From an uncultured Candidatus Saccharibacteria bacterium (lineage in GTDB: Bacteria; Patescibacteriota; Minisyncoccia; Phycocordibacterales; UBA918), in the NCBI GenBank assembly GCA_964402035.1, contig CAYOAM010000001.1:307558-371557 (forward strand): 64,000 nucleotides of DNA, in the 5' to 3' direction. Position 1 is the stretch's first letter; each line of letters starts with the position of its first letter. Shown here in pieces: positions 3,891-35,500 of the stretch. Position numbers and translations under genes: made by a program. The notes under the pieces are model-generated. The model was not told the origin of the DNA. It searched no databases and saw only the letters and a program-made list of their open reading frames with translations.

Positions 3891-3958
3891 ATCGATTTTT
3901 AATGAATAAAAGGTATTCTCTATCTATAGTACTACGAACAGACGTTTGAAAAGTAACA

Positions 3959-5394: not shown

Positions 5395-5765
5395 TATGTG
5401 GTACAGGCTGCTCGACTAAAAAGTCTATCAGCAAGCGCGGGACCAAAAGAGCATGCGGCCCTCATTGTAACCGCGTTATAGCGAAGTGTGAGTGCAAAAC
5501 TCATATCTGGTGCATGCGACATAGACACAGGCATCAGCTGGACGTAGCAATAGCCATGAGCTGCTTCCACAAGAATTCGCACGTACCCAATAAAAAGGTG
5601 GGGCAATCGACCTTCCCACAAAACCAGAAAGATTGGGGTCGGATTATTTCGAGCGGAATTATACGACTCTTGTAGCTCTCGCAGCGTGGGACACGCTGCG
5701 AGAGACTGAAAGCTTGGGGGCCCTCTTCTTCTCACAACAAACCTCCTGCTCAAAAACATGAACCT
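5395..5765 (-). ncRNA. candidate structured non-coding RNA, family unassigned
   Basis: ~400 nt with no protein-like ORF (only an R/C/A-rich 121-aa frame), minus-strand -35/-10-like TTGCGG-18nt-TACACT at ~5772-5800, perfect 13-bp hairpin CTCTCGCAGCGTG/CACGCTGCGAGAG at 5679-5707, and a terminator at 5361-5390. Confidence 0.3.
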
Positions 5766-5809
5766 CTGAGACTAGTGTACGATATCAGCTGTCATTTCCG
5801 CAAACAGTG

Positions 5810-6406
5810 TTATACCGTATTGCGTGCATTTTTCAGTAACTGTGCCCACCAAATGAGTTCTTCAATAAGCCGATCAGCACTACCTTCGTTTGGTGCAAAT
5901 GCTTTTTCCTTTAGACTGCCATTTGCTTCAAGCAGATCCCACGGTGAAACTATATGCACGGCACTTTTAAGTGGTACAAGTCCAACATCAATCACGACTT
6001 GTCGCAATTGCTCAACGGCGCGCACAGCTCCGTATGTTCCGTATCCGACAAATGCCGAAGGCTTTTTATTCCACTCTTTTTTTAAGTGATCAATATTGTT
6101 TTTGAGTGATGCGGGGTAGCCGTGATTGTACTCGGGAGTTACAAATACAAAACCATCAGTATTAGCGATCTTCTCTGCCCAACGGTCTATGTCTGGTTTT
6201 CCATAGGCTCCCAATACTTTACTGGGAGATACAGCCTCTGCAAACATCAGCAACGGATAGTCTTTGAGATCCAGGAGTTCAACTTCGACATCTTCCTTAT
6301 TTGAAAGAAGATCAGCGATCCAGTGTGCGGGTTTATCACCAAATCGTCCCTCACGGATACTTCCGATCACTACTCCTATACGTATTTTTTCTTGCATAGT
6401 CGGCAT
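5810..6406 (-). CDS. NADPH-dependent FMN reductase family flavoprotein (NAD(P)H-dependent oxidoreductase)
   Basis: RIGVVIGSIREGRFG N-terminal flavodoxin-like motif, FVTPEYNHGYPASLKNNIDHL. Confidence 0.85.
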   Translation of the reverse strand: MPTMQEKIRIGVVIGSIREGRFGDKPAHWIADLLSNKEDVEVELLDLKDYPLLMFAEAVSPSKVLGAYGKPDIDRWAEKIANTDGFVFVTPEYNHGYPASLKNNIDHLKKEWNKKPSAFVGYGTYGAVRAVEQLRQVVIDVGLVPLKSAVHIVSPWDLLEANGSLKEKAFAPNEGSADRLIEELIWWAQLLKNARNTV

Positions 6407-16900: not shown

Positions 16901-19900
16901 CGCTTGTGACCCATAAATGTACATGTGCGCAGTCGTCTCGATGTCTCGACCTCCTGCATCTTTTCCTGAAATACGTATTTCGTACTCACCTTCCTCAGCA
17001 AAAGATAGCGACCCACTCCAATTGCCATCCTTGTCAGTCCGTATATTTTCAGAATTAATATCTTTGAAACGTTTTTCCGATCGATAGTAGAAGCCACCAT
17101 CCACTTCCTGTCGCTTGAATGTTTCCCAGTTGATTTGACGCACAGTGCGCGTGAGGTTGGATACGGCAAGCGGCGCACCCTGTGTGTCCACTGTTTTTAT
17201 GCGAAGTGTTGTTGGTGTATTTTTGCTCGTATAATAATCATCGGTTTTTGCTCCAATATAAAAATCTCCTTTATGTACAATAAATGACTTCTGCGTGGAC
17301 ACCGACCGTCCGTTGATATCCCGCACGGTTATCGAGACCGTGATGAGCTTGCTGCCGACAACATCATCGCTACTAAAATACGACATCAAATCAAGTTGCC
17401 GTTCGATTGTTGCCTTCCCCGCTTCATCAAGCGTCGTTTCACCACGAAATAGGAAATTGTCGCCATACCCACACTCATAGCAGTAGTACCATCCACCGCC
17501 AAAATTGAAATACTCGTCAGTGTAGCGATCAAAATAATAATCTTGTGCCGTGACCGAGTACGACACCTTGCCTTCTGAGAGTGCGGTACCAAAATAGTAC
17601 TCTGCCGCAACATCAATGTGCATCGTATCGCGATCGACATACTCCTCCTTGGAGGCCTTTGCATCAATAGCAAAGGCGGACGGGACATACTCCTCAACAT
17701 CAAACCAGCCGTATGCGTCGAGACCTGAAATCGTGTAGGTGCCGAGTGGTGCATCGTCGGGCAAGGTAAACGACGTGTTAAATGTACCAAATGCACTCAT
17801 AACGAGCGGCACCTGATAGACCGTTTCTCCTAGAGCATTTCTCACCTCGAGGTTTACGTTGCCTTTGTTCCATATTTCATAACTACCGTCAAAGCCAATA
17901 CGATCAATACCACGGATATAGACCGTATGTCCGGGTCGATATATTGGTCGATCGGTATAGACATAAGTGCGCGAAGCGTTGCCTGCAGCACCACTGTATT
18001 GCAATTGATCTGCCCAATCGGTCACGATAGCGCTATCAGTCCCCCGTCGCACGACCACACCTGCAACGTTTGTGTCACTTACGACACGCGCAACACCTGA
18101 CGGATCGGTAGCGCCCACTGAACCTTTGGTAAACGCTGTATTATACCCACCGGCATACTGGTCGACGCTTGCTCCGACAACAGGATTCATTGACTTACTT
18201 TCCGTCACCCAATAGAGGTTACGTGCACGTTCAATATTTTTGTCACGCACAATATTTCTCTGTGCGTACTGACTTTGATCATTGCTCTCATATCTCGGTT
18301 CATATCGTTCGATTTCTTTCTTCCCAACAACGAGGTTGGTGACACTCACATAGGTGCGATCATATTGCGGTTTGCGCAACGTTCCTGACTGCATGTATGC
18401 ATTCATCGTCAAGAGTGGATGGCTAAAGGTCACCACATAGTGACCACGCACATCGGCAAAATAGTCCGCAAGATGTATTTGAAAATAATTGTTCACCCAA
18501 TAACGCTTTGGTAGTGGAATTTGAACACTCTTATCTTCTAGACACCCAACACCACTCGGTGGTGTAGTCCCAAGGTCATTTTGCATCGCGATCAGAGTGC
18601 TTTCCAAAAATGCCTCAGGTGACATGCGGCATACGTTCATGTTGACGTACTCCATGTTCTCCGTCGCATACGTCAACGTTGTTTTATCAGGCGTCGTGAC
18701 GTTGTATTGAGGCTGCATGTTGTGGAAGCGTACATACGATTCCTTTGCTGCTTCTGTTTTAAACGACAGGTCTACTGATGCTCGTGCATCAAATACATCT
18801 GTGAGCGTTAGGTTTACCGTGTACTTAGTCTCTGGCAATAGACCGTATCGGATGTTTGTTTCAAATTCTCCGGCACCACACTTGTAGTATGGACTTGCTT
18901 CGCTCACAAACTGTGAATTCGACCAACGACCAAACACTATGTAGTCACTCGCCTTTACATACGAGGAGAGCCCCTGCTCACTCGGATCCTTAATAGGTGC
19001 ATTGGTACAGATATACATGCCATCGAGCGGCGCGCCCGACGCTCCCTGCGCTGGCAATGTCCGCAAAATATTGAACGTTGGATAGGAATGAAGTGGTACT
19101 TTGATCGGTTCTTGATTGACGCGCAGACCATCAGTCGTCATCAAGCGCTCGAGATTGAGATCAAATGAAAGATCGCGTGCGATTTTTTCAGGATCAAATG
19201 AAAAGATAAGAGTCCTGGTATCTGGCTCTTTTTCACATTCAGAGCCGAGCATGATGGTCTCATTGTTTTGATCGACTTTGCAGCGATCCGCATACGCAAC
19301 AGAACGCAGGCCCGTTGCATACATGCGCGACTGATCTTTATCTATGTTTTCAAAAAAAGTGAGCACCAATGTCCCCTGCGGATCAAGAAAATCGGGTCGT
19401 GCAAGTGATGTACGATCTGATTCTGCACGCACACCTGCAACCACACTCGGAACTGCTATACGTTGCTGCCTCACTTCAGCAAGGTTTTGATTGCCGGCAA
19501 GCGGTACCGCACCTTCGATTGAAAACTCATACGCTGTTTCAAAATCCCATACATTTTTGCGTCCATGCCGATCTGCTTTTGCGCGTACAAATACCTTGCT
19601 GCGATCCACCTCGGTCACTGATTTCTTGAGTTTGGTATCGTAGCGTGTTTGCTCACCGTACGTGACATTGACCGGGACGGTATCACCTGCTGCATTGCGA
19701 ACCATAACTGCTTCTGCAGTCTTTTCCAAATCGACCGATTGATTGAAATCGACAATGATGGGTGATCGATACCCCACAATGCCTTCTGAAACAGATACGT
19801 AGCGCAATGGTCGCGTGGTAAACGTATGTGTTGTCGGCGCGACAGCAAGCCCATCGACTGACGTCAAACCTTCCCCTATGTCGACGGTGTATGAAGACGA

Positions 19901-20620
19901 AGGGATCAAGGTCGTCTCCGGAATAAATTGCAAGTTGCGCGTGCTAATCCATTTAAAATGTCCTGGTGTCTCGGGAGTGATCGTGATCGGAATTTCTTTT
20001 AGCTCCTGCTCACTGAGAGTAGTGAGCGGCACCATTGGTCGATTGAATAGTATCGTGATCTCGGTATCTTCGTGAGATTCACCCTCGGTCGCGGGCAAGA
20101 TGGCGAGTACTTTTGGATCTTCATCAACATAAAAATCTCCGGACATTTCGAGTGCATCCGCTTTGAGATTGACCGCATAGTACGTACCAGTTTTCAGCGG
20201 ATCGGCTGGATCAAAATAGATCATCCCTTCCTCGGTATCAGTAGTCCATGTGCCCTTCACTTCAGGACTAAAGGAGATGCTTGCTTGCGCAACAGCGTCA
20301 GAGACACCGTTAGGTACCTTGACTGGTATGGTTGCGCTCTGTGATATTTTTTCCGGCACAAAAGCAAATACTGTGGAGTATTTTTTTATTGCCACCGCCT
20401 CTTGTCGCTCATGGAGCGCCAATCCCAAAATAGCTATAGCGACGAGTGCAGCAATGCTCGTCATGAGATAGGTGTGTGTATTGAAGTACGACACAAATCG
20501 TTCTTGCACAGTTGGTGTAGCAGTGTTTATCGGGACCGTAGGTATCGGCGTAGAAGAAACCACTTCATTGGGTACAATGTCCGTCGTTGGTTTTGCTACT
20601 ATCCCCTCTTTTTCCTCCAT
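13952..20620 (-). CDS. alpha-2-macroglobulin family protein, thioester-containing, membrane-anchored (2222 aa)
   Basis: YPYGCGEQ thioester motif; N-terminal TM anchor; very large multi-MG-domain architecture typical of bacterial A2M (YfhM-like). Confidence 0.9.
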   Translation of the reverse strand: MEEKEGIVAKPTTDIVPNEVVSSTPIPTVPINTATPTVQERFVSYFNTHTYLMTSIAALVAIAILGLALHERQEAVAIKKYSTVFAFVPEKISQSATIPVKVPNGVSDAVAQASISFSPEVKGTWTTDTEEGMIYFDPADPLKTGTYYAVNLKADALEMSGDFYVDEDPKVLAILPATEGESHEDTEITILFNRPMVPLTTLSEQELKEIPITITPETPGHFKWISTRNLQFIPETTLIPSSSYTVDIGEGLTSVDGLAVAPTTHTFTTRPLRYVSVSEGIVGYRSPIIVDFNQSVDLEKTAEAVMVRNAAGDTVPVNVTYGEQTRYDTKLKKSVTEVDRSKVFVRAKADRHGRKNVWDFETAYEFSIEGAVPLAGNQNLAEVRQQRIAVPSVVAGVRAESDRTSLARPDFLDPQGTLVLTFFENIDKDQSRMYATGLRSVAYADRCKVDQNNETIMLGSECEKEPDTRTLIFSFDPEKIARDLSFDLNLERLMTTDGLRVNQEPIKVPLHSYPTFNILRTLPAQGASGAPLDGMYICTNAPIKDPSEQGLSSYVKASDYIVFGRWSNSQFVSEASPYYKCGAGEFETNIRYGLLPETKYTVNLTLTDVFDARASVDLSFKTEAAKESYVRFHNMQPQYNVTTPDKTTLTYATENMEYVNMNVCRMSPEAFLESTLIAMQNDLGTTPPSGVGCLEDKSVQIPLPKRYWVNNYFQIHLADYFADVRGHYVVTFSHPLLTMNAYMQSGTLRKPQYDRTYVSVTNLVVGKKEIERYEPRYESNDQSQYAQRNIVRDKNIERARNLYWVTESKSMNPVVGASVDQYAGGYNTAFTKGSVGATDPSGVARVVSDTNVAGVVVRRGTDSAIVTDWADQLQYSGAAGNASRTYVYTDRPIYRPGHTVYIRGIDRIGFDGSYEIWNKGNVNLEVRNALGETVYQVPLVMSAFGTFNTSFTLPDDAPLGTYTISGLDAYGWFDVEEYVPSAFAIDAKASKEEYVDRDTMHIDVAAEYYFGTALSEGKVSYSVTAQDYYFDRYTDEYFNFGGGWYYCYECGYGDNFLFRGETTLDEAGKATIERQLDLMSYFSSDDVVGSKLITVSITVRDINGRSVSTQKSFIVHKGDFYIGAKTDDYYTSKNTPTTLRIKTVDTQGAPLAVSNLTRTVRQINWETFKRQEVDGGFYYRSEKRFKDINSENIRTDKDGNWSGSLSFAEEGEYEIRISGKDAGGRDIETTAHMYIYGSQAVAAPPNNSYELDLEVEKTSVDVGDTATLLIKSPYEKAKVLITAERGTVYDYWIADVVGGLYKHSFPVKSSYAPNMYVAALLISPNPEVKFGSVRYDVGVKEHALDVAVSSNKTTYLPGEDVVLSVETKDNLGNPVSAEVSLAVADLSVLALKGNPKKNPLVFFYDGFPLSVSTASNLKNILYEVAIPLGTKGGGGANPDDLSKKKRGLFKDTAYWEASVITDENGKGTVKFTLPDNLTTWQIESLGVTKDTKLGVDYKEFTTKKDLMAVPLKPRFVVPGDTFSLGAQVFNQTDHATTVDVQLDSTSLEFLGDKTDAVKIAAGESKTVYFDVRAPKNKKAGEHIFTFTAKDGTFEDSVEQSISITPNTTFETVATANFTSADTATEYIYIPKEVISNEGGLTIHANATMAVFLTDALNYMVTYPYGCGEQLASALSTIATLKSALKVPNVVGSFENIEYEGVRYDVDTVVAQGLSRIYEVQTFDGGFAYYKGMEPDLFLTTHVALTLLNLQDAGYTIRDGVLDNALTYIEMHAADAYRMYPDDTHKDTVIFAEYVVRRARGTDTALTQYIKTFIADTPYIQERISSKSLTYLAILTYDSYTRSEVSKVYTALLGRIDIDGRGAYLKNPVQFESWGVSQTAITDTALLLKALVVHDDEHPMIGNILRWILAGRDKDGVWGGTHNTFVVVDAMVDYLKWQHESESEFSLRGLLDGAEIFVHNFTPKNIWETFTHVISIDSFEREKLLPLTFERTKRNEQKNNFYYDMALKYFLPVESLPPRDEGITITRDLYAYDAANTKNSTPVSSAQVGDIVRGKITLSIPGVYSHIAVEDIIPAGFEIVNFNLNTEDQSLQNQDGEYGEGQKGYDNDAMGYVVPPDNMFIRAFDRIESTFTSPQTAQIFGAIRDLGGEYKKVARKLWPSHVESHDDRVFLYIDTLSPGVYEYEYFLRALVPGTFQHMPARAEELYFPEVFGRTEGATFTITE

Positions 20621-22031: not shown

Positions 22032-22365
22032 ACAAGCAGTATAGCAGAACTACATTGGTGTGTAACAAGGCAACCGATTACTTCCCCACCACATATGTTC
22101 GACTTCCCTTTGTAACAACATAGGATTCATATCCTGCGTTGTTATTTCAGCACTAAAGAATAACCGTTCTCATTTGCAGTGCTTCTTCGAGTATTGATTC
22201 TAATTGTCGATAGTCGGAGTCGGTATCAAAAATCTGGGCGCGTGCGTCAGCACGATTGATGACGTGATAGATGTGGTTACCAACATTGACTCTTTCGATC
22301 CGTAGCATGCATATAGCATATCACCCGTTGCGGTTGTTTAATTTAATGGTGGCTGACCCCATTCT

Positions 22366-22422: not shown

Positions 22423-22519
22423 CTTATTGCAAGGACAGAAAGGAAACTAAGATGATGTTTTTGCGTTCCTGGACATTCGTAAAGTCGCAAAAAGAGACAA
22501 AACAATCGTAACTGTCCAC

Positions 22520-22590
22520 ATTCACTCAAGCGTTCACTGCCAAATGGGTAGTATGCAAAGAGGGTGGTGAGATAAGCAATGCGCACAAAA
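22520..22590 (-). pseudogene. degraded rhs fragment (homologous to the LLAYYPFGSQRL segment of the main RHS protein)
   Basis: translation ...LFAYYPFGSERL... and nucleotide similarity to 30860-30910/24380-24420 regions. Confidence 0.45.
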
Positions 22591-22774: not shown

Positions 22775-23089
22775 TTATAATCCATCAACAGCAGTTGTTA
22801 CTTTTATGACAATGCCTTCACCATTAAAGTCTATACTGCAGTCAACTCCGTTTTGTAGAAGATATATATGCTTTTCGTCGCTCGAGCGCATATCGATATC
22901 CTGACCATCATTTAGTAACCCACTCATAATATGATCTACTTGATCTCTTTGCATACCCACCTTGATATCGTTACAACGCTGTCGTATATCACTCAACTCT
23001 GGATATACAGTGAGATAAATTATAAATATCAGAAAAATTATTATTGGTAATCCTACTGCCATTCCAATGTACTTAATAATTTTTTTCAT
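22775..23089 (-). CDS. small membrane-anchored protein, candidate immunity protein for orphan rhs toxin tip 3
   Basis: 104 aa, N-terminal TM, AT-rich, starts 3 bp after orphan tip 3 stop. Confidence 0.5.
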   Translation of the reverse strand: MKKIIKYIGMAVGLPIIIFLIFIIYLTVYPELSDIRQRCNDIKVGMQRDQVDHIMSGLLNDGQDIDMRSSDEKHIYLLQNGVDCSIDFNGEGIVIKVTTAVDGL

Positions 23090-23091
23090 AT

Positions 23092-24141
23092 TTAATCTTC
23101 TTCACGTTCACCAGAAAGTGTGTTTTTTAGACTGTTAAGTGCATTTGATAATTGACTCAATACTCTACTAAGAGCAGACGTTGCATTGGGGTCAATCGAC
23201 CTACCAAGACCTGCTGTATAGGCGTTGTCATTCAAGTTTGTTATCGAGTTGTTACCAACTCCAGATTGTGTGAGAAGATTTGTAGCAAAGTTATTACTAT
23301 TATGTTGTCCGCTGACATTCGGATTGCCAAAAACTGAGTATTTACCAACAACTTCTGGTGAACTATTGTAGCTATTTACTATGGATGCTTCAAATTCCTC
23401 CGAGGTCATCCCATCCGGGGGTTCAATAGTTTGAATACCGCTATATTGATCACGAGAAAGTCCAAAATCACTGCCGCGATTAACATCCTTGAATAAGTCC
23501 CCTGTAACAAAATTCTCTGTATACCCTCCTAGTGTGACTCTTGAGTAGTCATCAACCCCATCAATTCTTGGTAGTGCATTTGGATTGTCAGGAGTAATGA
23601 GTACAAACGAATGGGCACCAATTCCTCCAATTACCGCTACATCAATTGGTCTGCTTGCCAACTCTACTTTCTCACCTGTAGGATCAAAAAGTATAAGCGG
23701 ATTATTTCTCGCATACGAATAAGTGTTGAACTGTTGTGGGTCTAGCAAGAATTGATTAGGATTGTCACGACTCGCTGGATCCATCGATATCCATTTTCCA
23801 TAATTGCTGTTCAAGTATCTTGCTCCTGCATATGTAAGCTCAGTCTCAGGATCATAGTCATGCCCTGTATAGCGATTCGTTTGTGTAAAGGAACTGGAAG
23901 TGGTGGTACCTATGAATCGTATCTCATCTAAGTATACCGTCTGGGTGGTGGCAGATTCAATGTTAAGAGCGAGGGTATTGTTGTATGAGGAGATTCCAAG
24001 GTCGGAGAGTGGTATGGATACTTCTTGCCAGGTGTTGGTGAGGTATCCACTTGGGAGGTAGTTTTCAATAACGCGGTTTTGGATCACTTGACCAAGGTGG
24101 TTGGTGAAATAGATATCGAGCTCTCCGGTGTTCGTGCCCAT
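23092..24141 (-). CDS. orphan RHS C-terminal cassette 3 (conserved 160-aa RHS-shell terminus + unique C-terminal toxin domain, unassigned)
   Basis: N-terminal 160 aa ~identical to main RHS residues MGTNTGELDIYF...YSYxRNNP; divergent tail after DPTGE. Confidence 0.75.
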   Translation of the reverse strand: MGTNTGELDIYFTNHLGQVIQNRVIENYLPSGYLTNTWQEVSIPLSDLGISSYNNTLALNIESATTQTVYLDEIRFIGTTTSSSFTQTNRYTGHDYDPETELTYAGARYLNSNYGKWISMDPASRDNPNQFLLDPQQFNTYSYARNNPLILFDPTGEKVELASRPIDVAVIGGIGAHSFVLITPDNPNALPRIDGVDDYSRVTLGGYTENFVTGDLFKDVNRGSDFGLSRDQYSGIQTIEPPDGMTSEEFEASIVNSYNSSPEVVGKYSVFGNPNVSGQHNSNNFATNLLTQSGVGNNSITNLNDNAYTAGLGRSIDPNATSALSRVLSQLSNALNSLKNTLSGEREED

Positions 24142-24400
24142 ATAGAGCCAGAATGAGAGGGTGCTGTATGGGGTGGTGTTGAAGGAGCTATGGGTATATG
24201 AGATACCTCCCCATGGAGATGTGTATTGGGCTTTGAGGCTGTGGGTACCTGCGTATGTGGTACTGGTGGAGTTTGTGAGGGTGACCGTCCATGATCCGTT
24301 GTCCGTCCATGGTGAGGTGAAGGAGTCTGCATAGATGTATGAAGAGATGGTGCTTTGACTTCCCCCTCCTTCACTGAGGCGTTCACTGCCTTGGAGCAGA
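23650..24400 (-). repeat. rhs homology block copy D (shared with 30190-31025)
   Basis: near-identical nucleotide runs extending upstream of the orphan start codon in a disrupted frame. Confidence 0.7.
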
Positions 24401-24484
24401 TAATTCCTAATACTTCTCCTATGTATTTCGTTACTATTTCTTCTTGCATCTCTCAGGAACTAAAGGAATACGAGGTAATCAATG

Positions 24485-24700
24485 TTACTTGTCTTCGAGT
24501 CTAAATTTTACACCATGCTCATCCTTAGTCGCTCTTTCAAAAGCCAATTTCCACTCTTCCCAGAATGCTGGGTCGGCGGTTCCTCCATCTTGAAGAATTG
24601 ACATTCCGCCTAGCATCCCACCAATTTCACTTGACTTAGTCTTTTGGTAGTAATTTTCTAGGAAATAGAACATTGCTCTGTATGCTTCTTTTTCATTCAT
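24485..24700 (-). CDS. small cytoplasmic protein, candidate immunity protein for orphan tip 2
   Basis: 71 aa, begins 2 bp after orphan tip 2 stop. Confidence 0.45.
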   Translation of the reverse strand: MNEKEAYRAMFYFLENYYQKTKSSEIGGMLGGMSILQDGGTADPAFWEEWKLAFERATKDEHGVKFRLEDK

Positions 24701-24701
24701 A

Positions 24702-25766
24702 TTAATCTTGATCTTGATCTGATCTTGGTAATCGTCTTTGATGCACTGGTTCAGGAGCCGACAATCCTGTCTCAGAATTGAATGTTCTCGGAGTGACGTT
24801 TTGCCCTCCGTTTATGATTTGACCGTCTCTAGTCTGCACCCAAGTCTGACTACCATTTTTGTTTAATCTTGCCGACCAGGTATTTCCCCACTTATCAGAG
24901 CCAAGAGTAGTACTTGGATCATCTGCAACATTCTGCAGAAGCTGTCTATTCTGGGGAGTGTCAGCGAGATGCCCCACCTCGTCACGGAATATATGAGATA
25001 ACCTATTTTCAGGTATCAGGTGCCTTATGTCTGGCTTCCCATCCAAAGAACCGATTACAATACTAAATACTATTTTCTGGTTCTCAGAAAGACTATCATA
25101 ATTTTCTTGTCCAAACACATAGTACCCAACAGGGTTGGTACTCTGCGGAGCCAAAGCAGAGTCAAATGTTTCGTCTGGTGTATAGGCGTAGTTTGCGTCA
25201 TCAAGTGCCAAGCTGCCAAATACCGCCAGTGCAATGCTTACCAATATTGGCACTGGATTTTCACCATTATTATCGACGAATACTATCGGGTTGTTTCGAG
25301 AGTAACTATAGCTATTCAACTGTTGCGGGTCTCTCAAAAGAAAATGTTGTCGTATTCCTTTTGCCTCTAGCGAGTTAGCATCTCCAAGTAACAATGACAC
25401 CGGATCCTGCGCAGTGAACCGTCCTGTGTTTCCATCATAATACCTCGCACCCATGTACGTGAGACTTGTTTCTTCGTCATAGTCATGCCCGGTATATCGA
25501 TTGCTCTGTGTAAAGGAACTGGAAGTGGTGGTACCTATGAATCGTATCTCATCTAAGTATACCGTCTGGGTGGTGGCAGATTCAATGTTAAGAGCGAGGG
25601 TATTGTTGTATGAGGAGATTCCAAGGTCGGAGAGTGGTATGGATACTTCTTGCCAGGTGTTGGTGAGGTATCCACTTGGGAGGTAGTTTTCAATAACGCG
25701 GTTTTGGATCACTTGACCAAGGTGGTTGGTGAAATAGATATCGAGCTCTCCGGTGTTCGTGCCCAT
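24702..25766 (-). CDS. orphan RHS C-terminal cassette 2 (unique tail with a hydrophobic helix and HxxD-containing domain, unassigned)
   Basis: N-terminal 165 aa match main RHS incl. RYYDGNTGRFTAQDPV; junction VDNNGE replaces DPxGL. Confidence 0.75.
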   Translation of the reverse strand: MGTNTGELDIYFTNHLGQVIQNRVIENYLPSGYLTNTWQEVSIPLSDLGISSYNNTLALNIESATTQTVYLDEIRFIGTTTSSSFTQSNRYTGHDYDEETSLTYMGARYYDGNTGRFTAQDPVSLLLGDANSLEAKGIRQHFLLRDPQQLNSYSYSRNNPIVFVDNNGENPVPILVSIALAVFGSLALDDANYAYTPDETFDSALAPQSTNPVGYYVFGQENYDSLSENQKIVFSIVIGSLDGKPDIRHLIPENRLSHIFRDEVGHLADTPQNRQLLQNVADDPSTTLGSDKWGNTWSARLNKNGSQTWVQTRDGQIINGGQNVTPRTFNSETGLSAPEPVHQRRLPRSDQDQD

Positions 25767-26165
25767 ATAGAGCCAGAATGAGAGGGTGCTGTATGGGGTG
25801 GTGTTGAAGGAGCTATGGGTATATGAGATACCTCCCCATGGAGATGTGTATTGGGCTTTGAGGCTGTGGGTACCTGCGTATGTGGTACTGGTGGAGTTTG
25901 TGAGGGTGACCGTCCATGAGCCTGCGTCTGTCCATGGAGACTGCCAGCTGTCGGTGTATAGGTATGACGATGTGGTGGTGTCTCCTCCCCCTTCATCGAG
26001 ACGTTGGCTGCCGAAGGGATAGTATGCGAGGAGGGTGGTGAGGTATCCATCATCATCGGTTTGTGCTTGGGTGCTGCCGAGGTGGTCGAGGTGGGTGTGA
26101 TAGGTGCTTGCAGATCCGCCTGTGCCAGAGACTGATGCTATGAGGGTGTCACCTGCGTAGAGAAA
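25290..26165 (-). repeat. rhs homology block copy C
   Basis: ~0.88 kb near-identical to 30190-31025 including ~400 bp upstream of the orphan ATG (ends at AGDTLIASV-equivalent). Confidence 0.7.
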
Positions 26166-26211
26166 AAGGTACCTGACACCCTATTCCAAAAAGTGACACT
26201 TATTACTATTT

Positions 26212-27504
26212 TTATGAAGGAGACGGAATTGTTTCATTTTTTGAACTTTCTACAATAAACTTTGCACGTTCGTAAAGCTCATCATAAGTAATGATTTCAA
26301 TATTTCTGGAATCACGCCGAAAAAGTTCAAAGGTTTTTGCTTTGATTAAAGCTTCTTTATTTTCTCCTCCAAACTGCCTTGAATGACCAATAACCAAAAT
26401 GGCTTTTGGATCATAAGATTTTTGTTTAATTGGTTTCCCTATATCATCAAAGTGACTTGAAGGATCTGACTCTGCCTTAACTTGCAGACTAGCTTTTTGC
26501 TCCAGGATTTGCGACAACGCAGACGTTAAATCATCTGATAATTTCCAAGCATTTGAACGGTTTTTGTCTCTGCCATACAATTCCGTATCAGGTTTTTTCA
26601 ACTCAACTAAAACAGTAAACTTATTACACCCTAATAAGAAATCAGAAACTGCAGCTTCCTTACCAGACATATCGACTCCAGATACAGTCACCTCTCTTTG
26701 TAAAATAGAGAGGAATCTATAATCTAAACCATAACCAAAAATCCAATTATTTTCTTCAAAAAAATGTTGCCACGCAGCTTCTGCTCCAAGCTGTTTAATG
26801 TTGTTCTCTGTTTTATATTTATCGACATATCCATCTTCCTCTAATAATTTCCTAAATATTTCCAGCTTACTTTTTCGGTAGCCAATATTAACAATATCGT
26901 TTGAAGTAATTATTCCACTACTAAGTAGCTCCTCAATAATTTTGTGACCATCCTCTCTCATTAGTAGAGTAGTAATCTTCTTTTTTGTATCCTCATCAAT
27001 TGTAGGCAAGTTGTCTGTATTGAGTGAAATTTTTCGTTCGTTTATACTTCCAAGATCTAATGCAGATATCATCTGCATATAGCCGATTATTTGTTTAAAA
27101 AAACCATATGAGAATGTGATTTGTTCTTCTTGGGGTTCGTACCCAGTTTTCTTGTAGTACTTAAAACGTTTGACAGAAATACTTTTGATTTCGTTACTTT
27201 CTTTGATGAACGTAAAGGTTGTTTTAATCTTATTTCTTACTCGCTCGGGGTGCTCAAACTCAATTGCATCAGGAACTCCATTATCATCACTGGAGACGAC
27301 GGTAAAAAACTTTCCAGCACCATTTTTAAATTGATGCGTATATAGAGTATCTCGAACGTAATTATCAACGATTTCTGATTCAGTAGATTCTTCGTATTTA
27401 TGTAAACCCATATTAGTACCTAGTATGCACCGATAAATTAGACTTTCAAAGTCTATCATTAACGTCTTACGCCGTATCGCAAAAGCACTGTTACTCGAAG
27501 GCAT
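26212..27504 (-). CDS. Shedu-like DUF4263-type PD-(D/E)xK nuclease (putative anti-phage defence protein)
   Basis: QREV...SDFLLG...VLVELKKP E/D/ExK motif set, C-terminal ILVIGHSR...EIITYDELYERA; ~33% GC, embedded in rhs cassette array. Confidence 0.45.
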   Translation of the reverse strand: MPSSNSAFAIRRKTLMIDFESLIYRCILGTNMGLHKYEESTESEIVDNYVRDTLYTHQFKNGAGKFFTVVSSDDNGVPDAIEFEHPERVRNKIKTTFTFIKESNEIKSISVKRFKYYKKTGYEPQEEQITFSYGFFKQIIGYMQMISALDLGSINERKISLNTDNLPTIDEDTKKKITTLLMREDGHKIIEELLSSGIITSNDIVNIGYRKSKLEIFRKLLEEDGYVDKYKTENNIKQLGAEAAWQHFFEENNWIFGYGLDYRFLSILQREVTVSGVDMSGKEAAVSDFLLGCNKFTVLVELKKPDTELYGRDKNRSNAWKLSDDLTSALSQILEQKASLQVKAESDPSSHFDDIGKPIKQKSYDPKAILVIGHSRQFGGENKEALIKAKTFELFRRDSRNIEIITYDELYERAKFIVESSKNETIPSPS

Positions 27505-27575
27505 TAATCATGACTGCCCCACTTTGTATTAACAAATTAGGAGTCAGGCACCTTAGTCACGATTATCTGACACAA

Positions 27576-27938
27576 CTAGAGTAGATCAATTTCTGCTACA
27601 AGTGTTAACTCAAGATCTTCTACTTCAGCACTGGTCATTGCTTTTTGTTTATTTAAGAAACCTTCCTTGATAAGTAAGGGAACTATTCTTAGTATTGTAT
27701 CTCTACTCACATCCTTAATTATAAATTCATGTACATCAATACTTGAAAAGCCTTTTCTTTCTATCGAATCCTGTACTTCCTGAATGTGGCGATACGGCTG
27801 AATAGCAGACACATTGTAAAAAGAACCATCCAACTGGAGATAAAAGTCTCTCAAATTTTTTTGTTCGACCTCCCACTCAATTGCCGCGTCAGTATAACCA
27901 GTTGTATTCTTATGAAAGTATATCTTTAATTTTTTCAT
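27576..27938 (-). CDS. candidate immunity protein for orphan tip 1
   Basis: 120 aa, AT-rich, begins 3 bp after orphan tip 1 stop. Confidence 0.5.
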   Translation of the reverse strand: MKKLKIYFHKNTTGYTDAAIEWEVEQKNLRDFYLQLDGSFYNVSAIQPYRHIQEVQDSIERKGFSSIDVHEFIIKDVSRDTILRIVPLLIKEGFLNKQKAMTSAEVEDLELTLVAEIDLL

Positions 27939-27941
27939 GTA

Positions 27942-28985
27942 TCATCCTTCTATTTTTTTAGTCTTAATCTTTTCTAGCTCCGCTTGGAACTGCTTTGGCG
28001 TCAAGTTGCCGTTTGGTACTATTTCGTAATGATTTGGATTATCTCCTCGTTGGATAATTTTGAGAGTATCAGGTAGTGAAGTTATTTGATTGGCACCACC
28101 AAATTTCCCAAGACTTGAAGCGTCTGTATTTACAGAAATACCTCTAATATCAGCTACAAAACCATCAGCATCAATCTTGATTTCGTTTGGTTTTATACTG
28201 AATAGATTATTCCCTGAACCACCCCTAAACACAGGCACTAAGTTATCTCCATTCCTAACCAAAGAACCCACATTCGCCTTATTGCCAAACGCCATGAAAG
28301 CCAACTGTAGCGAGAGCTTCTGTGAAGGACTCATGTTGTCATAACCCGGCACCAAAGGATTAGTTCCCGATGGAACATTTGTTAGGTCGGTCGATTCAGC
28401 CGGCGAATACGCATAATTAACATCAGTTGCAAAATTAACAATACAAGCAAATGCAATCGCGAGTCCTAGCGGTAGGATATCACCTCCAGGGTCATACACA
28501 ATCATTGGATTATTACGTCCGTAGCTATATGTATTAAGCTGTTGCGGGTCTCTAAGTAAGAGTTCCAACGGTCGTCCATACTGTGATTCCCAAGTACGAG
28601 CTCCTAGATCAAGATTTGCCGGATCCATCGATATCCATTTTCCATAATTGCTGTTCAAGTATCTTGCTCCTGCATATGTAAGCTCAGTCTCAGGATCATA
28701 GTCATGCCCGGTATATCGATTGCTCTGTGTAAAAGAACTGGAAGTGGTGGTACCTATGAATCGTATCTCATCTAAGTATACCGTCTGTGCAGTAGCAGAT
28801 TCAATGTTAAGAGCAAGAGTGTTGTTGTATGCACTGATACCAAGGTCAGAGAGTGGTATCGAGACCTGTTGCCAGGTGTTGGTCTCAAAACCGAGAGGAA
28901 GATAGTCTTCAATGACACGATTTTGGATGACTTGACCAAGGTGATTGGTGAAGTATATATCAAGCTCTCCGGTGTTCGTGCCCAT
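27942..28985 (-). CDS. orphan RHS C-terminal cassette 1 (unique tail; FRGG...E pattern faintly ART-like, unassigned)
   Basis: N-terminal 153 aa match main RHS; tail diverges after YDPGGD. Confidence 0.75.
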   Translation of the reverse strand: MGTNTGELDIYFTNHLGQVIQNRVIEDYLPLGFETNTWQQVSIPLSDLGISAYNNTLALNIESATAQTVYLDEIRFIGTTTSSSFTQSNRYTGHDYDPETELTYAGARYLNSNYGKWISMDPANLDLGARTWESQYGRPLELLLRDPQQLNTYSYGRNNPMIVYDPGGDILPLGLAIAFACIVNFATDVNYAYSPAESTDLTNVPSGTNPLVPGYDNMSPSQKLSLQLAFMAFGNKANVGSLVRNGDNLVPVFRGGSGNNLFSIKPNEIKIDADGFVADIRGISVNTDASSLGKFGGANQITSLPDTLKIIQRGDNPNHYEIVPNGNLTPKQFQAELEKIKTKKIEG

Positions 28986-29085
28986 ATAGAGCCAGAATGA
29001 GAGGGTGCTGTATGGAGTGGTGTTGAAGGATGATGGGTGTGTATATGAGATACCTCCCCATGGAGACGTGTATTGGGCTTTGAGG
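28520..29085 (-). repeat. rhs homology block copy B
   Basis: 28986-29085 identical to 30611-30710 upstream of orphan ATG; ends abruptly at GATTAATCGTGACTG. Confidence 0.7.
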
Positions 29086-29089
29086 CCGA

Positions 29090-29521
29090 TTAATCGTGAC
29101 TGTCACCTTTCTTTCTTGCTGCCCCAAGTATTATCATACTTAAACATATTGGGGGAACTAAAATTATCAATAAGTTAATGATCCAATAGTCTGAATTGGG
29201 GAGTTTGATCAGGTCGCCAGAGAAAAACAAAACTGCATATACTGCACTAAAAATAACAATTAAGTTTGAATTTACTTTATTAGGAGCTTCAATCAATGAA
29301 ATTAATTTGAATATTACTAAAAAAATTAACGAACTTACAGATGAGATACAAAAGAATATAAATAGTAAATATGCTGTTAATTTAATTACGTTAGCATCTA
29401 CGACTCCATCTAACATATAAGAATACAAACCCGTATAGTAATGAATTGCCATAAAGACAGGACATGCCACTACCGCAGCGATCCAGCCACCTATAAAAGT
29501 ATTTAATGAATTTTTTCTCAC
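29090..29521 (-). CDS. polytopic (4-TM) membrane protein, candidate cognate immunity protein of the main RHS toxin
   Basis: 143 aa, 4 hydrophobic helices, ~30% GC, 17 bp downstream of RHS stop. Confidence 0.55.
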   Translation of the reverse strand: MRKNSLNTFIGGWIAAVVACPVFMAIHYYTGLYSYMLDGVVDANVIKLTAYLLFIFFCISSVSSLIFLVIFKLISLIEAPNKVNSNLIVIFSAVYAVLFFSGDLIKLPNSDYWIINLLIILVPPICLSMIILGAARKKGDSHD

Positions 29522-29538
29522 ATTATTTAATGATTAAT

Positions 29539-32500
29539 TTAGTAATCAACATTTACATTGATTGGTTTGTTCCAAGTATTGTTAAACCATTTATGGAACG
29601 AGTTATTATTACTGGTCAAATCAATACATCCTGCCGAACCCGCGGTCCAGCCTCCATGAATATAATATCCAGTATCTCCGCTTGAATTACTTAATTCAGT
29701 CCGTTGGGTTCCCCAAGCGGCAGGACCTCCTGGCCAAGGCCCAATTTTTCCCCCTATGAGTGGTATATTTTGAGTGATTCCGCTTACTAGTGAGCCAGCT
29801 TTCCTTGCACCAGAAACGTCAGCCCAATTCTGTGTTTTGTTAGGGTCGGCACTCCATATTCCCTCTGGAATTGGATCATTCCCACTATTCCCAGAAACCC
29901 CTTCCCAACTAAGCCCAGGCATAGCAATACCGTACGAGGTATCGTATGCAGAGAGAGTCTTATTATCAAAATTTAATTCAAGATTCTGGCCAGGAAGAAT
30001 AATATAATTTCCGGCTTTAATTTTGTCTGGGTTGTTTATTCCATTAGCTTTAGCAATTTGACTGATTCCTAGTGATGTTCCATACTTTTCGTTTATCTGC
30101 TTTTGGATATGCGTAAGTGTATCTCCTTTTTCAATTTCTCCTGAATCAACATTAAATAATCCAAGTGGGTCTATAAATCTGAGAGGGTTATTTCTGCTAT
30201 ATGCATAGTAATTAAATTGTTGAGGGTCGTACAGAAATGTTTCTGGACTCTGCTGACTCACTGGATCCTGCGCAGTGAACCGTCCTGTGCTTCCATCATA
30301 ATACCGTGCCCCCATGTACGTGAGACTTGTCTCTTCGTCATACTGGTGCCCTGTATATCGATTCGTTTGTGTAAAGGAACTGGAGGTTGTGGTACCCACA
30401 AATCGTATCTCATCTAAGTATACCGTCTGGGTGGTAGCAGATTCAATGTTGAGTGCAAGGGTGTTGTTGTATGCACTGATACCAAGGTCTGAGAGTGGTA
30501 TAGATACCTGTTGCCAGGTGTTGGTCTCAAAACCGAGAGGAAGATAGTCTTCAATGACACGATTTTGGATGACTTGACCAAGGTGATTGGTGAAGTATAT
30601 ATCAAGCTCTCCGGTGTTCGTGCCCATATAGAGCCAGAATGAGAGGGTGCTGTATGGAGTGGTGTTGAAGGATGATGGGTGTGTATATGAGATACCTCCC
30701 CATGGAGACGTGTATTGGGCTTTGAGGCTGTGGGTACCTGCCGATACTGGAGTGGTGGCGTTTGAGAGGGTGACACTCCACGAACCTCCATCGGTCCATG
30801 GTGAAGTGAGAGAGTCTGCATAGAGGTATGAAGATGTGGTGGTGTCTCCTCCCCCTTCATCGAGACGTTGGCTGCCGAAGGGATAGTATGCGAGGAGGGT
30901 GGTGAGGTATCCGTCGGTGTCGGTTTGTGCTTGGGTGCTGCCGAGGTGATCGAGGTGAGTGTGGTATGTGCTTGCAGATCCGCCTGTGCCAGAGACTGAT
31001 GCTATGAGGGTGTCACCTGCATAAATATGTTTGGTTGCAGATGAGCCATACTCATAGAGATTTGATGGATAGAATGTCGTGCCAGAAGGACCGGTCTTTT
31101 GCGTACGTTGTCCGGTGTGGTCGTATGCATAGGTGACGGTCGTGCCACTTGATACACTTTGCGTGAGGCGATTTTGGTAGTTCCAGGTGTTCGCAAGACC
31201 TGCGCTAGTTGACGCAAGGTTTCCGTTGGTATCGTATGCATAGGTAACTCCGTTGATACTCGTTGCCGCATGAGGGTTCGCATAATTGCTTCCGGTATTG
31301 CCGCTATAGGTGTATGCACCAACATCTGATTTTGAAGTGATGTTGCCGATAGCGTTGTATACGTATGTCTGCGTGTATGGTGTGCTGCTTGCGCCGGTTG
31401 TCGAGGCACTGGTGAGGCGGTAGAGGTCATCGTATGTGTATGTGGTGGTTGCAGCACCATGGGTATCGGAGCGATCCACGATTTGGGTTATGTTCCCGAC
31501 GGCGTCATAGGTGTATGAGAGATTTTGGACTGTCGCTGCATAGTATGGATACGTGAGTGTCGTTGAAGTACCACTTCCGGTACTTGAAGCAAGTACAAAT
31601 GTGGAAGTTGTGGTACTCCATGCACCTTCTGCATTCCAAATGTCCCAAAACTTGATGCGCCAGTAGAATGTGGTTGACGAAGCAAGTGCTGATCCTGCGT
31701 ATGCGATATCAGGACTGCGGCCACCTTGTGCCGTGGTACTCGATAGCGTTGTTTTTGTTGAATCCCAATATGAGGAGGTGAAAGCGGATGAAGTTGAAAC
31801 TTGTATCTGGTATGAAGCTGCAGTATCGGTTGCATTGCTGTCGTTAAAGATTGCAGAAAACTCAGGGGTGCCATCGGTCACACTCGTCGGATTTGTTTGT
31901 CCTTCGGCAAGGAGAGATGATGGTGCAGTCGGTGCAGAGTTGGTAGCAGATGCAGTATAGGTAGCGTATATAGATACTTTGCGGGCGAAATATGTTGGTG
32001 AAGTTATTGGGTTTGACCAATCAGGATAGGTGATCGATTTAAGCGCGTATTGGTTTGTTGATCCTGTATCCCAATAGACTGTTGCAGAGCTGTCGTGTCC
32101 CTGCCAGAGCCAGTAGGTGGTGCCAGACGCAAGACTATAACTTGGCATGGTCATATCTACCCATGATGCAGTCGTGCCCACCCCACCGGTGACGCTTGAG
32201 GTCGCGAGCGGAGCGTTTGGTGCACCACTCGAATCAGAATAAAGTGCTGCGATTTTGTTCATGGTGCCTGCTGTCGTCTTTTTGGTATACGCAGTTATCT
32301 TGGAGAGCGTACCGTTTTCACTGTTCATAGAAAACTTTGAACCTATGTAGTTCCAGGTGTCAGCATTGGTGCCACCGATCGTACCATAGCCGAAGGTGGG
32401 ATCTACGCGTACCGGATAGGTTGCGGTATCTAGATACTCTTGCGGGACAATCACGCGCAGTGCCCCTTTCTCATACGAGAGTGATCCCCAGACCGCCACA

Positions 32501-35500
32501 CCTTTTGCGTCAACAATCTTCGGGCGGAAAATATGAAAGACTTTTCCCGATTTAAATTCCCCATCTTTCTTTTCTTTGTGGTACACGGCGTATGAACCCA
32601 CAATATTTTCCGGGCGACGTACAACCACGACACCTTCTGCGTCTGTACATGCAGTTTCGGTGCATGAGAGTTTTTCTTCGAAAGTTTCTTCGGTCAGAGG
32701 TGGCTGGTACAAAAAGTCGAGATCGTCGGTTCCTGAAAGTGTAAAGGTGAATGTATTTTTTTGTGGTTTCTCATCGAGGACCACTTCAATCTCAAAACCA
32801 CCCGCCTCCATACCTTCTCGGGGAGCAAGTGGGTACGCCTCAACCGATTCGCTTCCCCCATCCCATTCCACAACGTTTCGTAATGGAGAATAATATGGGA
32901 CCGCAAACGGAAGTTCGTAACGAACAGAAAGATCAACCGCGCCGCTCCAGGTATTTAGGCGTACTTCTGGCAGTGATTTGTCGACGTGCGCAGTGTATGT
33001 ATCAAACCTGGTATCGGCATCAGAGATAAATTGATACGTACGTGCAGTCTCGCGAGGAGTTTTCTGTGAAAGTCCATCTGGTATAAACAGTATTTCTTCC
33101 TTCAGTACCGGCTCGAGTGCTGAGTCTGTCGTCGTCGCCGTGGTGGTTCCCAATAGATCTCTTTGTACGGTTGTAGTGGTGGCAATCTCATTGGCAGTAT
33201 CTTCATGCAGTACGGTGTCGGTTGTAGTAGCATCGAGGACTTCAGGTGTCGTGGTAGGCACTGCTATGGACGGAGACTCTGCGTCGGTGAGGGAGTTTTC
33301 CAACACCTGCATTAAATCTTCAAAGTCAGGTGCGTCAGTGGTGTGTACTGCTTCATTTTCCATCTCAACCGCTCCCATAGTTTCGGTAGCATCAGCTAAG
33401 AGTGCTGCTTCCACACCACGCAGTTCATCTCCGCCTCCCCCTGTAGGTGGAGGCACCGACGTCACGATACTGGAAAGACGATAGAGCGCGTTTGCATCGT
33501 ATGTCTTTGTGGTACTTGCTCCATTGCCACGCTGTTCATAGACCACCAGTCCGGTAGGTGCATAATCAATATCGCTGATAAGTGACTGCCACGACCCACC
33601 GCTCTCTTTTTGCTGTACTTTTTCAAGCTGTCCTGCGCTGTTGTATATATATGCCACGCGTGATAGATCAGGAAAGACAATCTCGGTTTGCTGTCCTTGT
33701 CGATCGTAATCATAGGAAATGACAAAGGTCGAGGTTGCAATGGTCGTTGTCGCAAAATCTGGGAGGCTATTTGGGGTATACGCGTATGAAGTCGTTGCAG
33801 CTCCTAGACTCACTGCTTGGCACAACTGCATTTTGCCATTTGTGCAGGTGTCATAGGTATAGGTTATTTCTGTACCTGTTCCTCCGGTGTAGTTTTCTGT
33901 GAGCGGACGGTTAAGATCGTCGTATGTGCGCACTATCACCTGTCCCTTAGGATCAGTGGTGGTCGCGACATTTCCTGCAGCATCGTATGCAAAACTCCAG
34001 TTGCCAAAGGTGTTATCACTTGCTGCATGGAGATCTTGCATAGTGAGACGACGAGAGAGACCGTCATAGGTAATGGCACGTACATTCCCTAATGCGTCGG
34101 TGATTGTTGCAAGGTTGTCGTTGGTCGTCCACAGATATGCGGTCGCGTACGTACTGGTGCTGTTGTATTCAGTAGTGGTCGAGAGGCGACCAAATGCATC
34201 ATACGAGAACATCTTCTTATTGCCGATCGGATCAAAAACTGTTTCAGACCACTGGTCGTAGACCGTTGCGGTTGTGCCCACAGCAGTTGTGGAAGTTGCC
34301 ATGCGTCCAAGCGCATCATACACATAGGTTGTATACAGATTGCTTTGCGAAGTCGACGCAGTACGTGCAGAGCCAGTATCAAAGTACGGCAATGATTCCT
34401 TTTCCAAGAGTCCATTATTTCCATACACAAGATCACGTACAGCGTACTGATTGGAGTCCTCCGCCTCGACACGTGTCTGCATTTTCCTGCCAAATCCATC
34501 TGCATACTCGTATGTGTCCGTTGTCGTAGCGGTATTTAAATATGACCTTGTGTTAACCGACACCGCACCTTGTGTGTCAGTATAGGTGTATGTGGTTTTA
34601 GTAACTGGTGTTCCGGTCTGTGGGTCGGGAATCTTTTCTTCTTTCGGTCGATCAAATGCATCATAGACGATAACGGATGTACGCCCGTTTGGATCGGTCG
34701 AAGTACTTACCTTTCCACTTGAGTAATCATATGTCTGTATCGTGGTGTACCCCAATGGGTTTGTGGTAGTTGCAGGATACAAATTTAGTGCGTCATAGGT
34801 ATACGATGTAGCCTTATCACGAGCATCTTTATACTGTGTCACTAGCCCGTAACTGTTGTATGTTTTTTCTTCATCAATGTACGTACTGCCACTCACCCAC
34901 GATTCACGCTTGGTGAGATTGCCGTCGGTTACATTACCAAGGCTTTGATTGTCATAATACAAACGATCTTCTTTTATCTTGGTTGCTGCATAGTTGAGCA
35001 ATCGTTGCGATGATGGCAACCCTACGATGTACGCTGTGGTATTTGTGGCATAGGTATAGGCGACCGTGCGCTTGTCCGTATCTGAGTCAACATAGGTACC
35101 ATCCATAGAGGCATCTACACTTCCCCACTCAGTAATCGATGTTGTATTTCCATAGCTGTCATATGTAAATGACTTAGCCAGATCACGATGATCGCCATCA
35201 CCATCGTATGAAAGCACCACCTCACTAAGCGGAGAGACAAAAGTTGCATTATCGCCTCGATCAGCCTCAAGCCAATTGGTCCATTGAATATTGTATAGAT
35301 TGTTCGTACGATCAAATAAGTCAACGCGATATGATAGACCGATACGCGCAATGGCGTCTCCAGACTCATTACTGCTGGTACTATTGCCGTTCCCTTGGTG
35401 CTGATAGGTAACGGACCGCGAGAGTCCACTATTCTTCTCAACCGCACCAAAGCCAGCAAATTTTCTGTCGCGCGGACTGCTTGAGGAAAAATAAAAATCA

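Follow-up and report, generated by a model that had tools for sequence, protein, structure and literature searches.

The locus analyzed here lies in a window of 64,000 nucleotides (nt) of contig CAYOAM010000001.1, from an uncultured bacterium of the Patescibacteria, or Candidate Phyla Radiation (CPR). It comprises a full-length rhs gene, hereafter the main gene, and, downstream of it and in the same orientation, three 5'-truncated rhs fragments (the orphans O3, O2 and O1), with a small gene after each. The list of open reading frames (ORFs) of the window places all genes of the rhs locus on the minus strand, in the order main gene, small gene, O3 and a small ORF, a Shedu defense gene, O2 and a small ORF, O1 and a small ORF. 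We consider this, with good confidence, to be a known kind of rhs locus, a main/orphan array that arose by C-terminal displacement, and an ordinary polymorphic-toxin design. What is new is modest: the host belongs to the Patescibacteria, the recombination arms run through an inserted lectin-like domain, and the cassette boundary falls just past the first catalytic aspartate. The parts of the array are as follows.

29539..37995, minus strand: main rhs gene, 2818 amino acids (aa), from the ORF and its Pfam matches.
30259..31023, minus strand: recombination arm, the tract of the main gene that is repeated before and inside the orphans, from blastn, alignment, mosaic blocks and exact tracts.
27942..29102, minus strand: orphan O3 (ATG at 28985), with 39 open RHS codons before the ATG and 347 codons from it.
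24702..26180, minus strand: orphan O2 (ATG at 25766), with 138 open RHS codons before the ATG and 354 codons from it.
23092..24459, minus strand: orphan O1 (ATG at 24141), with 106 open RHS codons before the ATG and 349 codons from it.
22515..22574, minus strand: vestigial rhs fragment YLTTLFAYYPFGSERLSECG, 60 nt.

The arm comprises an insert resembling a carbohydrate-binding module (CBM) together with the RHS core's first half. Ahead of it, the orphans have neither a delivery region nor their own start codon. In blastn, O2 (26159-25398) matches the main gene (31023-30259) at 87% over 766 columns, O1 (24390-23852) matches 30876-30338 at 84%, and O3 (29086-28696) matches 30728-30338 at 94%. The vestigial fragment YLTTLFAYYPFGSERLSECG (22574-22515) matches 30909-30850 at 79% and stands at the far end of the array. 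The called ORFs of the orphans (27942..28985 for O3, 24702..25766 for O2 and 23092..24141 for O1) all begin with MGTNTGELDIYFTNHLGQ, which corresponds to the main protein from residue 2457 onward. Their annotated start is thus the equivalent of Met2457 of the main protein (30627), inside the CBM-like insert. An earlier note on this DNA had described 300 to 400 bp of homology upstream of each orphan ATG. Such homology is present for all three orphans, but it has that extent only in O2 (393 bp), being shorter in O1 (249 bp) and O3 (101 bp). The outer edge given there, 31025, was essentially right, as the blastn homology ends at 31023.

The earlier note also held that the frame of this upstream homology no longer encodes the RHS shell, and that its disruption produced shadow ORFs. 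The arms would then be pseudogenes, and some tips, notably the one of O2 with the junction VDNNGE, would lack autoprocessing. The shadow ORFs do exist, in the ORF list of the window.

24084..24449, minus strand: shadow ORF in the O1 arm, +1-offset frame.
25709..26056, minus strand: shadow ORF in the O2 arm, +1-offset frame.
30414..30860, minus strand: shadow ORF inside the main gene, +1-offset frame.

The RHS frame itself is nevertheless intact. The only indel in the four-way alignment of the arms is one of 3 bp. Upstream of each orphan ATG its frame is open, without a stop, over the codons listed above; the first in-frame stop comes 17-70 nt past the homology edge. With the arm included, each orphan has 386-492 uninterrupted codons. 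Upstream of the O2 ATG this frame reads YAGDTLIASVSGTGGSASTYHTHLDHLGSTQAQTD..YYPFGSQRLDEGGG.., which is RHS shell sequence. The ratio of nonsynonymous to synonymous substitutions (dN/dS, Nei-Gojobori) between arm and main gene is 0.24 for O2 and 0.33 for O1, which means that the arms were coding in the RHS frame while they diverged. The shadow ORFs do not mark a disruption, because one of them (30414..30860) sits inside the uninterrupted main gene, where the +1-offset frame is equally open. Across the whole of that intact gene, 94 stops fall in this frame and 212 in the other alternative one, and it contains five ORFs of 128-152 aa. The shadow ORFs are a by-product of composition, i.e., an artifact.

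The four copies have exchanged sequence in the past. Where all of them align, the 78 two-two informative sites fall in three uninterrupted blocks of 38, 4 and 36 sites. The first block (30709-30436) joins the main gene and O3 against O1 and O2, the second (30367-30352) joins the main gene and O1, and the third (30337-30269) joins the main gene and O2 against O1 and O3. Three perfect blocks would arise under random order with a chance of about 1e-27. The earlier note had suggested mapping the breakpoints; the blocks place one at about 30436-30367, at the end of the insert (ESATTQTVYLDEIRF.GTTTSSSFTQ), and the other at about 30352-30337, between NRYTGH and QYDEE. Long exact tracts accompany them. 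The main gene and O3 share 223 nt, counted from where the O3 arm begins, O1 and O2 share tracts of 308 and 105 nt, and O1 and O3 one of 89 nt. Around the ATG, 53 nt are identical in all four copies. The mosaic blocks and the exact tracts show past exchange between the copies. When main gene and orphan are joined in silico at the shared tract, the resulting ORFs have 2803, 2810 and 2805 aa and are free of internal stops, and the simulated crossovers delete 1642, 4861 and 6486 bp. These observations bear out the proposal of the earlier note that the upstream homology is a recombination substrate, with exchange inside the RHS C-terminal region.

How could such an array have formed? Most likely, new tips entered by recombination at the conserved end of rhs, and the tip present until then was displaced downstream together with its immunity gene. 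The beginning of the O3 arm lies 4 nt past the stop of the main immunity gene, as would be expected of a junction at which a new tip took the place of the old one. The arms would stay substrates for RecA-type homologous recombination or for gene conversion. A crossover between main gene and orphan would remove 1.6, 4.9 or 6.5 kb and leave an intact rhs gene with another tip, whereas an unequal sister exchange would duplicate the interval instead. Meanwhile, the immunity genes could protect the cell. Tip switching of this sort may take place in living cells.

The arrangement itself is no artifact of assembly, because a contig from a second sample (L006) is 99.98% identical to window 30450..26046. 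It reproduces the end of the main gene, its immunity gene, O3, the O3 immunity gene, Shedu and the O2 arm. A misassembly of repeats was rejected, as the arms differ from each other (84-94% identity) and the independent contig agrees. A metagenomic relative from an unrelated sample (L001) starts inside a main rhs gene with the same insert and has an orphan downstream, whose arm (552 bp, 86% identical) is in frame and open. At 3823..3989 this contig also holds a third, damaged orphan fragment, in which the first half of the insert is fused directly to KDPTGL and a hydrophobic tip; it has lost the remaining insert and that half of the core which holds the first Asp. In a third locus (L003), from a Parcubacteria metagenome-assembled genome, rhs is built alike and includes the insert; its tip is of HNH type, and there are no orphans.

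Several points weigh against a switching array. The switched arrangement, with main gene and orphan joined, was not found in the two locus-bearing samples, a very small sampling in which both show the parental order. Promoter and terminator signals near the orphans are not above chance, which bears on the expression of orphans and immunity genes: a consensus scan of 22000-31200 gave no excess over shuffled sequence (30 promoter-like sites against 22.4 +/- 5.1 expected). A deletion between the main gene and O2 or O1 would remove the Shedu gene, and this may select against such events. Finally, the four putative immunity proteins and the three orphan tips match no described family, so that their roles rest on position.

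In another explanation, the orphans are inert fossils of C-terminal displacement that no longer switch, and only the immunity genes are kept, against the toxins of neighbors. The single arrangement in two samples would fit, as would the absence of an own start codon and of an evident promoter ahead of the arms. The 60-nt remnant at 22515..22574 shows that there is decay in the array, and the third fragment of L001, with its core deleted, is damaged. Fossils, however, would have to be reconciled with the 386-492 uninterrupted codons that the three orphans keep through their arms, and with exact tracts of 223 and 308 nt that indicate recent exchange. The toxin tips are moreover undegraded, and the domain of the O2 tip is conserved in other lineages. 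We therefore regard inert fossils as unlikely, and an array whose arms can still recombine as the better account of the locus.

The internal ATG raises a different possibility, namely that the orphans are expressed alone, from the equivalent of Met2457 or from internal promoters, as modules of toxin/antitoxin type. Gene callers do annotate proteins of 347-354 aa from this ATG, and internal expression of Salmonella rhs orphan toxins has been reported (PMC7043789). A Shine-Dalgarno sequence is missing at the orphans; this says little, because in a window-wide check most genes of the genome lack one. Yet this ATG falls midway within the beta-sandwich insert and is not a conserved start, because relatives have Ile or Val at that position. 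The frame is open and homologous far upstream of it, and no promoter signal rises above chance. The product would be half a domain, with no signal peptide and no shell for cleavage. Expression of the orphans on their own is thus very improbable.

What would the orphan tips be attached to? The main protein carries a hydrophobic leader at its N terminus. Its domains follow in the order signal peptide, SpvB, FG-GAP repeats, RHS repeats, Ig_Rha78A_N, RHS repeats, CBM-like insert, RHS core and tip (Pfam: SpvB 3.6e-15, FG-GAP_3 3.1e-17, RHS_repeat 3.5e-21 over three stretches, Ig_Rha78A_N 1.7e-12, and LysM). The RHS_repeat matches place it among the Rhs/YD-repeat polymorphic toxins, and the succession of signal peptide, SpvB, FG-GAP propeller and RHS is that of the TcdB/TcaC type. 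No Pfam match to PAAR, VgrG or DUF4150 was found in it, which speaks against a Rhs effector secreted by the type VI system, where a PAAR or VgrG-binding N-terminal domain would be expected. Two regions of the protein matter for the array.

30394..30846, minus strand: CBM-like beta-sandwich insert, about aa 2384-2534, between YYPFGSQRLDEGGG and the RHS core.
30157..30393, minus strand: RHS repeat-associated core (aspartyl-protease plug) of the main protein, TIGR03696 at 77.3 bits.

The insert has about 150 aa and stands after YYPFG and before the RHS core. Its boundaries are clear from close relatives without it (P0006-P0008), in which YYPFGxxRxDE passes directly into xxNQ(F/Y)xGxxxDxET, whereas the window proteins and P0001, P0004, P0005 and P0009 have some 150 additional residues at this site. 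An AlphaFold2 model of insert and core has a low overall confidence (predicted local distance difference test, pLDDT, 47.9). Only the all-beta insert is usable (pLDDT 58-88), and because of this the model cannot tell an inward-facing insert from an outward-facing one. Foldseek matched the insert model to CBM8, CBM11, CBM28, CBM22, CBM27, CBM4 and the xyloglucan-binding domain of SGBP-B, with E values from 1.6e-6 to 1e-4; the best match, CBM8 (7t7y, E 1.6e-6), has a TM score of 0.57 on the target. The insert stays below the curated Pfam cut-offs (SGBP_B_XBD 21.5 bits versus 26.4, CBM30 13.6 versus 27). A profile-free search of 1.8 billion representatives retrieved 1017 homologues, many in tandem copies, in proteins that reach CBM30, CBM_4_9, MAM or Peptidase_M23. 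Large RHS proteins have one or two copies at varying positions: at the site used in the window (P0081, P0181), between earlier RHS repeats (P0101, P0102, P0121, P0200, P0202), or twice (P0127). The earlier note had placed a CBM-like beta-sandwich insert and the final YD repeat in the conserved part, and the shared tract does hold such an insert along with the last segment of YD/core type. "CBM-like beta-sandwich insert" is therefore a fair description, with glycan binding predicted. [quoted passage not shown] The one in the window belongs to none of the families which that paper names (RicinB, discoidin, bulb lectin) and stays below every Pfam CBM cut-off.

The other half of the frame-loss explanation concerns the release of the tips. 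The junction peptides differ between them, as the earlier note had listed.

30171..30157, minus strand: main junction IDPLGL, with the second Asp D2609; the first Asp, D2577, is at 30267.
23685..23671, minus strand: O1 junction FDPTGE.
28493..28479, minus strand: O3 junction YDPGGD.
D at 25274, minus strand: O2 junction VDNNGE (VDNNGEN).

Only the main protein keeps the canonical DPxGL, within a complete PxxxxDPxGL motif (NNPLRFIDPLGL); in O1 and O3 the DPxG is followed by E or D, and O2 has DNNGE without the proline. The first Asp motif is QDPVS in the main protein and O2 and MDPA(S/N) in O1 and O3. Both protease aspartates are kept in all four tips, where catalysis is predicted. All four also pass the cut-off of TIGR03696 (Rhs_assc_core, 32.5 bits), with 77.3 bits for the main protein, 70.8 for O2, 63.4 for O1 and 53.1 for O3. 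Variant junctions are common among relatives. Of 64 related cores, 38 have L at the last junction position, 6 have E, 5 have K, R and N stand there in 4 each, and D in 3; in all, 26 end in a residue other than Leu. The proline is absent in 3 of the 64. Pro-less junctions (VDKNGE, VDQNGE, VDLTGK, KDANGE) occur in 4 of the 11 full-length relatives (2000-3000 aa) that were inspected, and the VDKNGEW and VDQNGEW found there closely resemble the VDNNGEN of O2. A homology search with the O2 junction and tip returned no protein with the same junction, and recovered the toxin domain on other scaffolds.

Because non-Leu and Pro-less junctions are common in full-length relatives, a loss of autoprocessing is not indicated. 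The variation is normal for the lineage and gives no positive reason to expect tips that are not processed, contrary to what the earlier note had suspected. Every tip may be cleaved. The idea that the arms have lost the RHS frame and some tips their autoprocessing can thus point to the existence of the shadow ORFs and to the missing proline of O2, a state seen in so few related cores. With the frame open, both aspartates in place all tips above the TIGR03696 cut-off and Pro-less junctions present in full-length relatives, we find it scarcely credible. In Pseudomonas protegens RhsA, the catalytic residues are D1324 and D1346, and cleavage occurs after W1350, i.e., after D-P-x-G-W (PMC8765631). 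In Photorhabdus laumondii Rhs1, which has two DPLGL motifs 17 residues apart, D1338N abolishes cleavage (PMC8636562). The spacing from Asp to Asp is 32 in the main protein and O1 and 44 in O2 and O3, versus 22 in RhsA.

The position at which the copies cease to resemble each other may define the unit of exchange. High DNA identity between the main gene and O2 ends at 30259, two codons past D2577 (30259-30267). Between O1 and O3 it ends at 28609/23765, five codons past the Asp (28609-28625 and 23765-23781), and in L001 at nt 847, again two codons past it (839-847). Past this boundary the proteins still share LxDPQQxNxYxYxRNNPxxxxDxxG, while the DNA is only about 60-65% identical. Since DNA identity stops after the first Asp, each cassette comes with a second half of the protease plug that belongs to it alone. 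The conserved region of enterobacteria is described as reaching PxxxxDPxGL (PMC3967940, PMC8636562), whereas identity in the window stops 2-5 codons past the first catalytic Asp. We tentatively propose that in this Patescibacteria lineage of Sec-exported Rhs toxins the exchange module is everything after the first catalytic Asp and not after DPxGL. The tip would bring the spacer between the two aspartates (31 or 43 residues), the second Asp motif and P1, the cleavage site would be co-adapted to the toxin, and the arm would be the lineage-specific lectin-like domain just before the plug. This could well prove wrong, and we hold it with much less confidence than the array itself.

The toxins and their putative immunity genes are listed here.

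29542..30156, minus strand: main toxin tip, with LysM (4.7e-6) and a weak match to YkuD (L,D-transpeptidase, 2.1e-3).
29090..29521, minus strand: putative main immunity gene, rich in membrane helices, by position.
27576..27938, minus strand: putative O3 immunity gene, 120 aa, by position.
24702..25262, minus strand: O2 toxin domain (HIFRDxxGHLxDTxxNRxLL...GNxWxA...WVQxRxGxIxNGG), with homologues P0342-P0349.
24485..24700, minus strand: putative O2 immunity gene, 71 aa, by position.
22775..23089, minus strand: putative O1 immunity gene, 104 aa, with an N-terminal membrane anchor, by position and sequence.

The YkuD match of the main tip is below the cut-off, and its motif reads YYIHGG..SAGCIDL; a sequence search of the PDB with this tip gave LysM matches only. 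The Tox-LD-peptidase class of tips is listed for RHS/TcdB-type toxins (PMC3482391). The main tip would fit this class, and a membrane-embedded immunity protein could fit it too. The start of the main immunity gene is uncertain, the product having 143 aa from a GTG or 108 aa as called in contig L005. Pfam and NCBIfam gave no significant family for the O1-O3 tips or for the four small downstream proteins, which are putative immunity proteins by their position; matches among them to Tse2-ADPRT (E 0.057) and Peptidase_C26 (E 0.053) were rejected as chance. The O2 toxin domain forms a conserved family without Pfam coverage, which is also found at the C termini of other polymorphic-toxin scaffolds and in small signal-peptide proteins. 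The O2 (25190..25262) and O3 (28410..28478) tips both have a hydrophobic helix directly past the junction and then the motif D(A/V)NYAY(T/S)P. The relatives P0001, P0007, P0107, P0127 and L003 have helices of this type behind their junctions, and this helix may be a shared entry or pre-toxin segment.

The array has clear counterparts elsewhere. Salmonella enterica Typhimurium LT2 also has a full-length rhs followed by a 5'-truncated orphan with shared core homology, a toxin and an immunity gene. There, recombination of the main rhs with the orphan in the shared homology has been shown (Koskiniemi et al. 2014, PMC3967940); it fuses the orphan tip to the main gene, as it does in silico in the window. 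The LT2 toxin is delivered by type VI secretion, in contrast to the window protein with its signal peptide, SpvB and FG-GAP in a Patescibacteria host. The window also differs in that the arms cross an inserted CBM-like domain and in having three orphans and a remnant.

The window equally resembles the C-terminal displacement model of rhs evolution in Enterobacteriaceae, reportedly put forward by Jackson et al. in 2009 in BMC Genomics, in that serial tip replacement leaves older tips downstream, with a piece of core and an immunity gene. It differs from the enterobacterial case in its phylum, in its shell architecture and in the very tight 4-nt junction of O3. More generally, cassette arrays are the rule among polymorphic toxins, with a median of one active toxin to three cassettes (PMC3482391). 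The N-terminal architecture is the one of the TcdB/TcaC-type toxins and the TcB-TcC cocoon of Tc toxins (signal peptide, SpvB, integrin-like propeller, RHS; Zhang et al. 2012, PMC3482391), but, unlike in Tc toxins, no TcA-like partner is evident in the window. Finally, the orphan modules of CdiA-CT/CdiI (Poole et al. 2011, PMC3150448) are likewise start-less toxin/immunity arrays with a conserved pre-toxin piece, usable by homologous recombination. The scaffold and secretion route of the window differ from those of CdiA, with its filamentous haemagglutinin-like scaffold and VENN motif.

The finding may have implications beyond this locus. The main/orphan design for switching rhs tips, studied mostly in Proteobacteria and Firmicutes, also exists in an ultra-small CPR genome and has been active there recently. 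Some 20 kb for one toxin locus is a large investment for such a genome. Four tips on one scaffold, with two spacer lengths, offer a natural test set for the junctions that the Rhs aspartyl protease tolerates. There are also lessons for annotation: "orphan" ORFs called from an internal Met are pieces of a longer open frame, and alternative-frame ORFs in Thr/Ser/Gly-rich RHS genes are noise.

Around and within the array lie the following other features.

26212..27504, minus strand: Shedu defense gene (Pfam SduA_C, 4e-28), between the O3 immunity gene and the O2 arm.
About 22180..22330, minus strand: truncated N terminus of a RAYT/IS200-like transposase, MLRIERVNVGNHIYHVINRADARAQIFDTDSDYRQLESILEEAL, adjoining the rhs remnant.
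13952..20620, minus strand: alpha-2-macroglobulin, 2222 aa (MG2, bait region, A2M, TED, bMG10), from its domain content.

The Shedu gene has a low GC content (0.33-0.35) and is also present on the sister-sample contig L006. In L003, the Parcubacteria locus, a full-length homologue of the transposase lies downstream of rhs (5655..6329). Scans of the window for Rfam families and tRNAs returned nothing. The chromosomal flanks encode alpha-2-macroglobulin, MsrA, an S49 peptidase, DoxX, a ROK kinase, PGI, DnaB, CysRS, TyrRS and a penicillin-binding protein, i.e., proteins of housekeeping or envelope type. DnaB is 80% identical to a protein of a "Patescibacteria group bacterium" and 70-72% identical to proteins of Candidatus Kaiserbacteria, and because of these identities we take the host to be a CPR bacterium. 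The contig to which the window belongs is 453 kb long. Many genes of the window have a TATACT/TATAAT-like box 5-12 nt ahead of the ATG, which suggests that leaderless or short-leader transcripts may be frequent in this Patescibacteria genome. Some 2 kb separate the distal end of the toxin array from the alpha-2-macroglobulin gene downstream of it, which encodes a second giant envelope protein in a small genome.

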